From a virus: 64,000 nt of DNA. This document shows, piece by piece, positions 20,106-35,427 of the stretch (positions within the stretch are counted from its first letter, which is position 1; the number at the start of each line of letters is the position of its first letter). The stretch covers positions 5,909 to 69,908 of IMG/VR virus record IMGVR_UViG_3300009431_000014, one strand, 5' to 3'. The notes below the pieces were generated by a model. That model ran no database searches. It saw only the letters and a program-made list of their open reading frames with translations, and was not told the DNA's origin. A program made the position numbers and the translations under genes.

Positions 20106-21185
20106 ATGGGTTTGAATATGGATGCACTGAGGCAAAAATACGACGCAGTGCAAAAAGCAAAAGCAAGTAGGAATTATCAAGGCTTCTGGACTCCGAAGGT
20201 TGGGATGAACTCTATCCGAGTCTTACCGCCTTGGGATCCGAAGAAGGGACTTTACTTCAGGGACACTGCGTATCATTACAGTATCGGTGAAGAGAATCGT
20301 GCGTTCGTTTGTTTGAGAGCAGAAGGACAGTCATGTCCTATTTGCGAGTTGAGACAAGCTCTCTACAATTCTAATATTGAGGAGATGAAGGAACTCGCAT
20401 CTTCGCTTTCTCCGACAACCAGGATCTTCATGAATATCATCGATCGTAATGCTCCACAACAAGGAGTTCAGGTCTCACGTTTCGGTGTGACGATTCATGA
20501 AGGGATTGCGAGTTATATCTTGGATCCTCAGTGGGGAGATTTGACAGATCCTCAGGGTGGTAGGGATATTACTATCGAGAGAAGAGGACAGGGTATCGAC
20601 ACGGAGTATTTCGTTCGTGCGACACCTGCAGTTACTCCAATCTCTATGGATCCGAATGGTGTTAATGCTGTTCTTGCGGATCTGAAAGATCTGGATCAAA
20701 TAGTCAAGGTTCGGGAACCTCAAGAGTTAATAGATGCGGTTGCACCTATTCAGGAGATCTTGAACAAAGCTCTGGGTATGGTTGGAGGACAGGTTGGTCC
20801 AGCGTCACCACCACCTGCAACACCAGTGAAGTCCGCACCTGTAGCAGCTCCACAGCCCGCAGCTCCAAAGCCTGCACCTGTTCAGCCTCAACCTGCTCCT
20901 GTGGCTCCAGCACCCGTAGCACAGCCTGTACAACCTGCACCTACAACACCTGCACCTGCTCCTGTGGCTCCAGCACCTGCTCCTGCACCTGCTACACCTG
21001 CGGGTCCAGTGGCACCACCAGTTGATACAGAAGCACCGAAGCCAGTAACTCCCAAGGGGAGTAAGATGTCTATTCCAGAGCAGTATCAGAAGTGTTTTGG
21101 TTTGCAATATGACCCACAGAAAGATGATTGTATGCTCTGTGCATACGAAGCCTTCTGTATGCAATCCATGAATAAAACGAAGTGA
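20106..21185 (+). CDS. gp32-like single-stranded DNA-binding protein with Pro/Ala linker and C-terminal Cys cluster
   Basis: IRVLPP, H..C..CPICE, DLTDP..GRDITI; PAP-rich linker. Confidence 0.75.
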   Translation: MGLNMDALRQKYDAVQKAKASRNYQGFWTPKVGMNSIRVLPPWDPKKGLYFRDTAYHYSIGEENRAFVCLRAEGQSCPICELRQALYNSNIEEMKELASSLSPTTRIFMNIIDRNAPQQGVQVSRFGVTIHEGIASYILDPQWGDLTDPQGGRDITIERRGQGIDTEYFVRATPAVTPISMDPNGVNAVLADLKDLDQIVKVREPQELIDAVAPIQEILNKALGMVGGQVGPASPPPATPVKSAPVAAPQPAAPKPAPVQPQPAPVAPAPVAQPVQPAPTTPAPAPVAPAPAPAPATPAGPVAPPVDTEAPKPVTPKGSKMSIPEQYQKCFGLQYDPQKDDCMLCAYEAFCMQSMNKTK

Positions 21186-32700: not shown

Positions 32701-33081
32701 ATGGGAAGATACCAGAATGACTTCATAGCGTGGTTTAAGAAGCATATCTTCAGGAAGAAAGTACTCACTAAGGAAGAATCATTCAAGCTCGAGCAACGTG
32801 AGTTCGTAGCTAAGATATTTAAATCTACAATGATGTTCTTCGATGTCCTACATGAAGCTGAGAGGAATCTTGGTTGGTCTCGTAAGAAACGTAAGCAAGT
32901 GTGGCGTGACTTAGAGAAGGGACACCTCGAGGGGAAGCTGATCGAAGAGATGCAGAAGATCATCGAACCGATACTAAGTGCTGCTAAAGCGAAGGGGATG
33001 CAAAATGGAAATAAGGAAGATGCCGAAGGGCTTCAGTCTGCATGTGAAGCTGCCGATTCCAATCAAGGCAATTCAGATTAA
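32701..33081 (+). CDS. Hypothetical protein
   Basis: ORF with RBS GAGGAGG. Confidence 0.55.
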   Translation: MGRYQNDFIAWFKKHIFRKKVLTKEESFKLEQREFVAKIFKSTMMFFDVLHEAERNLGWSRKKRKQVWRDLEKGHLEGKLIEEMQKIIEPILSAAKAKGMQNGNKEDAEGLQSACEAADSNQGNSD

Positions 33082-33288: not shown

Positions 33289-33474
33289 GTGCGAAATGGA
33301 AGAAGATCAGGCGAGGATAGAAGGAATTGGGGCAGACGAGAATGTCTCCTTAAGATGGTTGAAGAGACACAAGTTCGGTTATTCTACCCTGAAGATATCT
33401 CCAGAGAACTCGCTATTCCTTTAGATACAGTGAACAGAATGTTGGAAGAAGTCCAACAAGTTGTATCAATTTAA
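33289..33474 (+). CDS. Small HTH-like protein
   Basis: PEDISRELAIPLDTVNRML resembles a helix-turn-helix. Confidence 0.5.
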   Translation: MRNGRRSGEDRRNWGRRECLLKMVEETQVRLFYPEDISRELAIPLDTVNRMLEEVQQVVSI

Positions 33475-33514: not shown

Positions 33515-34066
33515 ATGTTAGGACAGATCGCGACAGAAGTTAAGGGTTTGTGTCCTCTGATTCAGCATAATCCTGAGAGTATGAGCGTTCTCCCTACAGG
33601 GAAGAAAGTGGATTATAATGATGCGGGATACAAGAAACTGGAGATGGAGAGTACGCAGTATCGGGATGAGAAAGGGAATCTCGTACAGCCCGCAGATCAT
33701 TTTATGGCAGCACTTGTTAAGGCTGGAGCTCGTTTCAAATATGAAGGAAGGTTGAGTTATGCAAGTGTCGTTGAGGGAGGAGTACTGATTGAGCCTGAGA
33801 TGATTCTACATAAGAAAGGGACGAAGGTGGAGAAGTTCGAGCGATGGGTAGTAGTCCCACCTAGAACAGGTGCTCGGATTCGGAGAGTCCGTCCGATAAT
33901 TAAAGATTGGTCTTTGAGTTTCACTACGAATGTGATGAACGATTCGATTAATTTCGAGACATTGAAAAAGATATTTGAGTATGCTGGCTCGTTCATTGGA
34001 ATAGGAAATTGGAGACCTCGTTATGGTAGATTCGAAGTTGTCAAGTTCGGAAGAATCGGGAAATAA
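33515..34066 (+). CDS. Stand-alone Cas7/RAMP-like RNA-binding protein (Vipr-like)
   Basis: N-terminal KGLCPLIQHN strand, YRDEKGNLVQPADHFMAAL, RVRP..W.L.F, C-terminal Gly-rich loop AGSFIGIGNWRPRYGRFEV; no other cas genes in the window. Confidence 0.8.
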   Translation: MLGQIATEVKGLCPLIQHNPESMSVLPTGKKVDYNDAGYKKLEMESTQYRDEKGNLVQPADHFMAALVKAGARFKYEGRLSYASVVEGGVLIEPEMILHKKGTKVEKFERWVVVPPRTGARIRRVRPIIKDWSLSFTTNVMNDSINFETLKKIFEYAGSFIGIGNWRPRYGRFEVVKFGRIGK

Positions 34067-34141
34067 AGCAGTGCCAAGCGTGGTCAGGTTTGGTTTAGCT
34101 TGGTGGTGTCCTGTACGGTAGGGTCAGGTATAGCAAGGTTC
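34067..34141 (+). ncRNA. 5-nt periodic DGY-NN array 1 (15 units), putative guide RNA
   Basis: AGC-AG TGC-CA AGC-GT GGT-CA GGT-TT GGT-TT AGC-TT GGT-GG TGT-CC TGT-AC GGT-AG GGT-CA GGT-AT AGC-AA GGT-TC, starting immediately after the RAMP stop codon. Confidence 0.8.
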
Positions 34142-34163
34142 CATTAATCACAAGGAGGATTAA

Positions 34164-34439
34164 ATGGTAAGATGCAGAGTTAAGAAAGAGGTTTTACCAG
34201 ATAAGTTCGAGGTAAGAGATCTGGTAGGAGTATCATGGAATACATTACAGAAGTTGTTCAAGACTCTTCAGGGTAGAGAGATTACCCCTAAGGATCTCCC
34301 TCAATGGAAGTTAATGCTTGGGTTCGTGAATGCGACGAACAATTCTGTGAAAACGAGCATGCAATGTTTTAAGTTAAGCACATTACCACAATCAATCAAT
34401 TATTTGAAGAAGACATTAAAAAGGACGAGGCGGAGCTAG
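34164..34439 (+). CDS. Hypothetical basic protein between the two arrays
   Basis: AAGGAGG RBS, 91 aa; the last codons overlap array 2. Confidence 0.65.
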   Translation: MVRCRVKKEVLPDKFEVRDLVGVSWNTLQKLFKTLQGREITPKDLPQWKLMLGFVNATNNSVKTSMQCFKLSTLPQSINYLKKTLKRTRRS

Positions 34440-34532
34440 GTAGACTCGTGTTCGGTCAGGTATAGTGGTGTCAAGTGTAGTTTTGTAAGGTTGAGTTCGG
34501 TGATGTAAGGTACGGCATGGTCAGTATAGCGA
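34429..34532 (+). ncRNA. 5-nt periodic DGY-NN array 2 (19 in-phase units plus degenerate tail), putative guide RNA
   Basis: GGC-GG AGC-TA GGT-AG ACT-CG TGT-TC GGT-CA GGT-AT AGT-GG TGT-CA AGT-GT AGT-TT TGT-AA GGT-TG AGT-TC GGT-GA TGT-AA GGT-AC GGC-AT GGT-CA, then GT-AT AGC-GA. Confidence 0.8.
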
Positions 34533-34555: not shown

Positions 34556-34993
34556 ATGAAAGGTTATATAGAGCTTAAAACTAATCTCAAGAATGCTGAA
34601 GTCGTTTCGGTAATGGATAAGCTCTTCAAATACTTCCCAGCGAGATACGTAGGTAGAACTGGTGGGTTCGATGAGAAGGAAGAAACTTATCGTTATGAAT
34701 ACGATACTCGGTGTGATTGGTTTAAGAAGGTACTTAAGAATCATCCTTTAGTCTACGAGATTCGGGATGATCTATACTGTCTCTGTCAATTACATGGTGC
34801 TTCTTTGATTGCTCAGATTATGGGGAACATGAGCAAGAAAGATCACCATGATAAGAAGGGTGCGGTTAAGAGAGTGAGCAATACGATTAATGATTACCTT
34901 GAAGGGAAGATCCATCAGATTGCAGACAGAAAGTTATCTGTCGAAGAGCTCAAGAAGATCTTCGATGTTGTGGAGAAAGAATGCAATTCCTAG
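34556..34993 (+). CDS. Hypothetical protein downstream of array 2
   Basis: AAGGAG RBS before ATG 34556 (the ORF-track start 34517 lies inside the array). Confidence 0.6.
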   Translation: MKGYIELKTNLKNAEVVSVMDKLFKYFPARYVGRTGGFDEKEETYRYEYDTRCDWFKKVLKNHPLVYEIRDDLYCLCQLHGASLIAQIMGNMSKKDHHDKKGAVKRVSNTINDYLEGKIHQIADRKLSVEELKKIFDVVEKECNS

Positions 34994-35427
34994 TATGTAG
35001 CAGACTTTCAATCAAAAGCTTCGTCCCAGACAGGAACCATGTTGTGATCTCAGTTATGGATCCAGGAGACTCTGAAGGTCCAGCTAAGTTCCAGGAGAAC
35101 GAACATACTCTTGGAGTACTCAGATTAGCGTTCCATGATCTATACGGTACCAAGATGGAAGAACGGATAGAAGAGAGTCCAGGTAAATATACTTACTTCG
35201 ATCGTGCTATGGCTAATCAGATCTGGGAGTTCGTCAATAAATTCAATGGACAAGGGATTGAATTGATTGTTTGTCAATGTGAAGCAGGGATTAGTAGAAG
35301 TGCAGGTATAGCTGCAGCATTATCCAAGTGTCTAACTGGGGATGATATGCACTTCTTTAAACACTATATACCGAACCAACTGGTGTATAGATCGTTAGTT
35401 CAAGAGTGGGAAAAGAGAAGGAGGTGA
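34981..35427 (+). CDS. Tyrosine/dual-specificity phosphatase-like protein
   Basis: CEAGISRS (CX5R) P-loop, VISV.DP, L.FHD, PNQLV. Confidence 0.85.
   Translation: MQFLVCSRLSIKSFVPDRNHVVISVMDPGDSEGPAKFQENEHTLGVLRLAFHDLYGTKMEERIEESPGKYTYFDRAMANQIWEFVNKFNGQGIELIVCQCEAGISRSAGIAAALSKCLTGDDMHFFKHYIPNQLVYRSLVQEWEKRRR

Follow-up and report, generated by a model that had tools for sequence, protein, structure and literature searches.

The stretch of DNA analyzed here, referred to below as the window, comprises 64,000 nucleotides (bases 5909-69908 of a 69,908-bp IMG/VR record, rated 36% complete), and positions 33515-34523 within it very probably form a VIPR locus of an uncultured tailed phage, in which a vipr gene, a first vrRNA, an accessory gene and a second vrRNA follow one another and array 1 (34067-34141, + strand) is one of two guides. 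VIPR (Viral Interference Programmable Repeat) was first described in 2026 as a CRISPR-like, RNA-guided DNA silencer of phages that consists of a stand-alone ancestral RAMP protein (Vipr), usually one vap gene, and vrRNAs of 9-16 YNNGG units, which in type II are followed by an invariant tail (10.64898/2026.04.26.720920). Vipr proteins are characterized as minimal RAMPs with an RRM core, a glycine-rich loop, and a thumb, and vrRNAs as at least 4 tandem 5-nt units, located in intergenic DNA next to vipr, in which GGY or a related consensus alternates with hypervariable NN. As set out in the text of that preprint, the NN dinucleotides of the vrRNA pair with double-stranded DNA according to a '1 nt skip' rule (NNx), which was shown experimentally for the SUSP1 VIPR, and the outcome is the transcriptional silencing of competing phages and satellites (10.64898/2026.04.26.720920). 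Seven types are distinguished there, and variant consensus sequences (NNNGG, YNNNG, and NNNNG) as well as 'staggered' and ribozyme-separated arrays are given in its Methods and in the legends of figs S17-S18 (10.64898/2026.04.26.720920). This kind of system is already in print (2026 bioRxiv preprints), and array 1 is an ordinary instance of it beyond the layout of the locus and one residue of the G-loop.

Array 1 was delimited by an in-phase scan, and the array caller and the scoring used in the analysis were copied from 10.64898/2026.10.15.759431. The 75 bases at 34067-34141 (+) were resolved into 15 head-to-tail DGY+NN pentamers, namely AGCag, TGCca, AGCgt, GGTca, GGTtt, GGTtt, AGCtt, and GGTgg for units 1-8 and TGTcc, TGTac, GGTag, GGTca, GGTat, AGCaa, and GGTtc for units 9-15. 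The triplet is GGT in eight units, AGC in four, TGT in two, and TGC in one (canonical GGY, 8/15), and the dinucleotides read, in order, AG CA GT CA TT TT TT GG CC AC AG CA AT AA TC. Both counts reproduced those of the first-pass annotation, which had listed the same NN series (15/15 units in exact agreement) and had described all 15 triplets as DGY with the same four frequencies. The TAA stop codon of the 183-aa ORF occupies 34064-34066 and the array begins, as had been stated, at the very next base. From its end at 34141, a gap of 12 nt leads to GGAGG at 34154-34158 and then to the ATG of the 91-aa ORF at 34164; the array was thus correctly said to end shortly before the next ribosome-binding site, with the estimate of about 10 nt amended to 12. 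The vipr frame itself stays open for 26 codons beyond its TAA, through array 1, to a TAA at 34145-34147 (+), but an open stretch of this kind is estimated to arise by chance in about 30% of cases and carries no weight.

Runs of at least five DGY units were sought on both strands of the 64-kb window and were found only at 34067-34141 and 34449-34523, each of exactly 15 units on the + strand by the strict DGY scan. Once the two arrays were taken out, the longest remaining run was 4 units on the + strand and 3 units on the - strand, and 100 simulated 64-kb sequences (first-order Markov, both strands) had longest runs of 3 to 7 units. Across the 30 strict units of the two arrays, the entropy of the NN dinucleotide was near-maximal (1.96 bits at position 4 and 1.94 bits at position 5), and position 1 of the triplet reached 1.50 bits, with G in 15/30 and C in 0/30; the constant G and Y at positions 2 and 3 follow from the definition used to call runs. 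Position 1 is relaxed at the window locus, G being present in 17/33 units (52%) and C in 0/33. Arrays 1 and 2 have identical NN at only 2/15 unit positions, so that different targets would be specified, as had been proposed. Neither array was detected by Tandem Repeats Finder, a search of the whole window against Rfam at gathering thresholds returned 0 matches, and no tRNA or tmRNA was found in the window.

The gene that array 1 abuts (33515-34066, +) encodes a 183-aa protein that was assigned to phrog_4652 (E 9.7e-23; function not annotated) and whose sole sequence match among solved structures was PDB 36pp_D, 'SUSP1 Vipr protein' (E 4.8e-13, residues 25-175). A BLASTP comparison with the SUSP1 gene product gave 28% identity (E 5e-18), and neither a significant Pfam match nor a PADLOC match was obtained for this protein. 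The AlphaFold2 model, built from a 30-sequence input, had a pLDDT of 93.1 and a pTM of 0.88, and Foldseek aligned it with chains of CRISPR complexes of type III-A (Csm), type III-B (Cmr), and type VII (E 8e-7 to 4e-5, TM 0.5-0.64), which, from our reading of the entries, we take to be Cas7-family backbone subunits; the VIPR structures are absent from the Foldseek library, which runs to April 2026. The protein is accordingly described as a stand-alone, Cas7-like RAMP with the G-loop GIGNWRPRYGRF, and the earlier designation of the upstream gene as a RAMP was borne out by the SUSP1 Vipr sequence match together with the model. The tandem DGY+NN array is laid out like a VIPR guide RNA.

Relatives of the 183-aa protein were located by tblastn in 130 phage records, mostly Escherichia, Salmonella, and Shigella phages of the SUSP1/Felix-O1 kind, and also in some Mycobacterium, Vibrio, and Pseudomonas phages. 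An exhaustive HMMER search returned 2284 cluster representatives at E<=1e-3 and just 5 at E<=1e-30, the nearest full-length representatives having 41-47% identity; a word-indexed protein search found only 4 relatives.

The 91-aa ORF at 34164-34439 (+) lies downstream of array 1 and was classed as a putative vap-like accessory gene on the basis of homologous small ORFs beside vipr in the related loci L003-L006. Its product had only a sub-threshold helix-turn-helix match in Pfam (E 0.17), no match in PHROGs or PADLOC, and no similarity to SUSP1 vap1, and its AlphaFold2 model (pLDDT 58) was too poor to interpret; PADLOC likewise reported no match for the three proteins of the locus. Array 2 (34449-34523, +; 15 strict DGY+NN units by the in-phase scan) separates the 91-aa ORF from the gene that follows. 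With tolerance for a single bad unit (ACT), array 2 may begin at 34429 with 19 units and would then overlap the TAG of the 91-aa gene. Each guide sits singly in an intergenic gap of 97-116 nt.

Directly after array 1, a tentative hairpin was folded at 34141-34167 (+) with a 9-bp stem, CCAUUAAUC pairing with GAUUAAAUGG, and one bulge; its loop contains part of the Shine-Dalgarno sequence, and its stem includes the AUG of the gene that follows. This hairpin may serve as a 3' cap or as a translational switch; taken alone it is not significant (z -1.3 against shuffles), and array 2 has no counterpart. The flanks of arrays 1 and 2 were searched for a common tail, a pseudoknot, or a conserved leader, none of which was found, and the sole repeat between them was the 9-mer AGAGTTAAG, which occurs at different distances from the two arrays. 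Arrays folded together with their flanks were no more stable than shuffled sequences (z -1.96 to +1.34). Neither a sigma-70-like promoter nor an intrinsic terminator was predicted near the arrays on the + strand; transcription of the arrays within the operon fits this absence, which lends it weak support and proves nothing.

Two ORFs on either side of the locus were also noted. The 61-aa ORF directly upstream of vipr (33289-33474, +) has sub-threshold similarity to sigma-70 region 3 (E 0.051) and may encode a small regulator of the helix-turn-helix type; in L003-L006 the region upstream of vipr showed no counterpart. The 148-aa ORF at 34981-35427 (+) matches phrog_5614 (E 1e-14) and has weak similarity to dual-specificity phosphatases (DSPc, E 0.0046, below the Pfam cut-off), and a homologue of it is present just downstream of the VIPR locus in L003 (4850-5308).

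The remainder of the window encodes proteins of a tailed phage, including a DNA polymerase, a ligase, an SbcC-like protein, a portal, a protease, and a major head protein that is at most 29% identical to that of any cultured phage. No CRISPR-like direct repeat arrays were found in the 64-kb window, the sole direct-repeat family being a Pro/Ala-rich coding repeat (CCTGCACCTG... units) at 20844-21013 (+) inside a 359-aa ORF. A search of sequencing runs identified one marine DNA run that holds 23% of the words of the stretch, and its contigs cover 32800-32972 and 33690-34018 only, neither of which is on the arrays; no RNA run was listed among the runs holding the stretch.

Related loci were retrieved from IMG/VR with a 5-sequence alignment, a search with the single window protein having found none. 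Vipr relatives were encoded at 80 loci, and at 77/80 of these nGY/NN arrays were present on the vipr strand; the three loci devoid of an array were L026, L048, and L060. Five further loci with Vipr relatives were found in genome_contigs, in scattered MAGs and actinobacteria. The nearest relative, L003 (42% identity, on a 97.9-kb contig), has the order vipr, a 14-unit array that starts 6 nt after the stop codon, a 95-aa ORF with 57% identity to the 91-aa ORF of the window, and two more arrays. In L004-L006, the Vipr proteins have 34-37% identity to that of the window and the small gene beside vipr is 28-30% identical to the 91-aa gene. The recurrence of this small gene beside vipr in L003-L006 marks it as the probable accessory gene of the clade, and the arrangement of these loci indicates that tight packing of guides against stop codons is a habit of the clade.

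In three of these loci the guides are strung head to tail (L004:3978-4412, L005:4086-4347, and L006:3916-4286), each guide ending in WGCtt, with YT and two further bases separating it from the guide that follows. In L004 and L005 the same GCTTYT sequence also stands ahead of the first guide, on or immediately beyond the stop codon of vipr, and it looks like a common boundary or processing signal. It was not found in the window or in L003. The NN entropy was 1.9-2.0 bits in SUSP1 as well as in the window and L003-L006.

The structural role of position 1 can be considered from the SUSP1 Vipr cryo-EM work, in which a filament is described with one protomer per repeat, the triplet held by protein, and the NN presented (10.64898/2026.04.26.720927). 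In that account, H17 and D177 read the first guanine of the triplet (G1), R138 and W178 read the second (G2), and Y3 is accommodated in a pocket that includes R179 (10.64898/2026.04.26.720927). By pairwise alignment, R126, W166, and R167 of the window protein correspond to R138, W178, and R179 of SUSP1, and Asn165 stands in place of Asp177. The G-loop residue was compared with the fraction of units that carry G at position 1. This comparison covered the window and 76 loci of relatives in which a G-loop motif could be recognized and at least one array was present. L078, which has no such motif, and the array-less L026, L048, and L060 were left out, and L077, with two motif matches, was scored once as Asp and once as Thr. 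Loci with Asp (67) had a median G fraction of 0.89 (range 0.54-1.00), and the five loci with Asn had values of 0.52 (window), 0.56 (L029), 0.63 (L008), 0.78 (L033), and 1.00 (L009). Those with Ala (4 loci, L003-L006) had values of 0.05-0.15. These sequence comparisons are suggestive of a relationship in which the residue aligned with SUSP1 D177 tracks the share of units that keep G1, in a comparison whose residue groups are also clades, with many of the Asp loci being near-identical SUSP1-like phages, and which is not a proper comparative test. C was observed at position 1 in 0/33 units of the window, 0/53 of SUSP1 (L037), and 21/267 of L003-L006, and this avoidance speaks for the base remaining a protein contact and against its being a letter of the guide. 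Since the SUSP1 arrays already have A or T at position 1 in 13/53 units, the window differs from them in degree.

The target of guide 1 on one strand was predicted as AGnCAnGTnCAnTTnTTnTTnGGnCCnACnAGnCAnATnAAnTC (NN-x, one skipped base per unit). This form, in which the dinucleotides are joined by single free bases, had been proposed in the first-pass annotation and is that of the published '1 nt skip rule' as the preprint words it (10.64898/2026.04.26.720920). The level for a natural target was taken from the same source as an NN match of at least 80%, which corresponds to 24/30 here (10.64898/2026.04.26.720920). With up to 3 mismatches and a 1-nt skip, 0 matches to the guide 1 target were found in the window. 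Over the 69,908-bp record, the best 1-nt-skip placements were 19/30 for guide 1 and 20/30 for guide 2, and shuffled guides reached a mean of 19.1-19.2 and a maximum of 22-23; the real guides were no better, and the record therefore holds no self-target, a property likewise described for the guides of published VIPR systems (10.64898/2026.04.26.720920). Skips of 0 and 2 gave nothing for guide 1 in the record, and a skip of 3 gave the array itself only. Both guides were also compared with 85 loci encoding Vipr relatives (515 kb), where the best placement was 19/30 against a null mean of 19.7-19.8.

Larger collections were scanned with partial guides. For guide 1, NN1-10 and NN6-15 had 0 matches in IMG/VR, NN6-15 had 0 matches in genome_contigs, and NN3-12 had 0 matches in metagenome_contigs. 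NN1-10 matched one sequence in genome_contigs, a Pseudovibrio axinellae contig, at 23/30, and this candidate was rejected as a target, 20 of its bases being forced by the scan and the 3/10 matches among the others being at chance level. Windows of 8 NN matched 31 and 13 loci in IMG/VR, the best full-length score being 23/30 and none reaching 24. One conserved coding motif accounted for 29/31 of the NN8-15 loci, with the full guide at 17-19/30. This motif, which matches the 3' half of guide 1, GGnCCnACnAGnCAnATnAAnTC, with varying wobble bases, was found among L089-L119, in a family of small contigs (1.2-28.5 kb, mostly 1-7 kb); it was rejected as a target, the rest of the guide being mismatched and the count representing one chance match times the size of the family. 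For guide 2, the two 10-NN windows had 0 and 0 matches in IMG/VR and 0 and 1 in genome_contigs, and one central window had 5 in metagenome_contigs. The five guide 2 matches that lie fully within their loci scored 20-23/30 at full length; in L133, where the match falls at the end of the contig, no other full-length placement within the locus exceeded 17/30. As 16 or 20 bases were forced in these scans, the top score of 23/30 is at chance level. The gapped-motif search that the first-pass annotation had proposed gave no natural target, no match of at least 24/30 being obtained for either guide in the collections scanned by exact 8- or 10-NN windows, a design that demanded 8 or 10 consecutive perfect NN and lets targets with scattered mismatches escape.

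By homology with SUSP1, Vipr protomers would polymerize along the guide RNA, one per pentamer, each DGY triplet would be flipped out and gripped by the G-loop, the thumb, and helix 1, and the NN after each triplet would be presented for pairing. The filament would then bind double-stranded DNA by reading NN-x-NN-x..., with one base skipped per unit, and the bound filament could repress transcription of a competing mobile element. We infer that the 75-nt guide would be transcribed with the operon and then excised or protected, as the first-pass annotation had also supposed.

The 3+2 period had also suggested a TRAP-like RNA-binding ring, a candidate that was dropped after the match to Vipr. A related explanation is that the arrays are mainly cis-regulatory elements of the operon mRNA, acting in the manner of TRAP, which binds spaced triplets: Vipr would coat the pentamers and control translation downstream, and no guide would be released to act in trans. 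We consider this very unlikely, although several features of the layout agree with it, each array filling a short intergenic gap with the downstream ribosome site 12-20 nt beyond, the hairpin after array 1 being placed so that it could hold the Shine-Dalgarno sequence and AUG of the next gene, and a promoter, terminator, or tail belonging to the arrays themselves not having been detected. That hairpin is not significant (z -1.3), however, and the NN dinucleotides are random-like in their variability and differ between the arrays, which fits a programmable guide and would be unneeded in a protein-binding site. The guides of homologous VIPR systems, moreover, are described as being released and as silencing DNA in trans (10.64898/2026.04.26.720920). 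Cis-regulatory and guide roles are not exclusive.

Practically no credence is given to the other alternative, that the period-5 pattern is due to chance or to a DNA-level feature, such as bent DNA or a degenerate satellite, unrelated to the adjoining gene. Tandem Repeats Finder and Rfam do report nothing at the arrays, but two runs of 15 units stand against a maximum of 7 in 100 simulations, and the pattern is confined to one strand beside a Vipr homologue, with arrays recurring at 77/80 of the relatives' loci.

Within the reading of the arrays as VIPR guides, a further proposal is that this branch has released the first base of the triplet from read-out by the protein and that its guides, having lost their tails, lie within the operon mRNA. 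It is regarded as rather unlikely and derives from the series in which the G-loop residue passes from Asp to Asn (window) and to Ala (L003-L006) while G1 falls from about 90% to 52% and to 5-15%. If it were true, Vipr would carve guides from its own messenger by coating it, guide production would be coupled to translation of the accessory gene, and the freed base might join in reading the target, giving three-base words; the last of these is weakened by the exclusion of C at position 1 (0/33 in the window and 21/267 in L003-L006). Independently of this proposal, the locus contributes a marine example from an uncultured phage to a family so far described only in 2026 preprints, with a very compact layout in which the guides fill the intergenic gaps from stop codon to next ribosome site and have no recognizable tail. 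Comparison of the G-loop residue with G1 retention across 77 loci also provides a natural test of the cryo-EM model.

Among known systems, the type II VIPR of Escherichia phage SUSP1 (Vipr, Vap1, and four vrRNAs) shares with the window a stand-alone Cas7-like Vipr (28% identity), guides on the vipr strand built of 5-nt units in which G2 and Y3 are fixed and NN is free, the exclusion of C from position 1, a small gene adjoining vipr, and location in a phage genome; its arrays in L002 have 12-15 units, and those of the window have 15. It differs in that G is present at position 1 in 75% of units compared with 52% in the window, and Asp177 reads G1 where the window has Asn165. A conserved leader and tail accompany the SUSP1 guides (L002), and type II vrRNAs (SUSP1 / P. 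fulva clade) have an invariant 3' tail, with a pseudoknot in the SUSP1 clade, whereas the window arrays have no counterpart of these. The SUSP1 guides are located in long non-coding stretches and those of the window singly in gaps of 97-116 nt, and SUSP1 vap1 and the accessory gene of the window are unrelated in sequence. The nearest relatives of the window may be likened to the described VIPR systems with an alternative repeat consensus and 'staggered' arrays. L003-L006 (34-42% identity) have the same vipr-array-accessory gene-array order and the same accessory gene family as the window, but their units are WGY/NN with G at position 1 in 5-15%, where the window keeps half, and their G-loop residue is Ala instead of Asn; L004-L006 have head-to-tail guide strings with GCTTYT, in contrast to the single arrays of the window, which do not contain this motif. 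In comparison with class 1 CRISPR systems, the VIPR locus of the window has no CRISPR array or repeat-spacer structure and no cas gene among the three proteins compared with PADLOC, and its guide is encoded in the genome and not acquired. The Cas7 backbone of these systems (Csm/Cmr and type VII) nevertheless shares the RAMP fold (Foldseek), the G-loop, and the thumb. Both are described as forming a guide-RNA filament with periodic base flipping, the period being 5 nt in VIPR, with three bases flipped and two pairing, and 6 nt in CRISPR Cas7, with one base flipped (10.64898/2026.04.26.720927).
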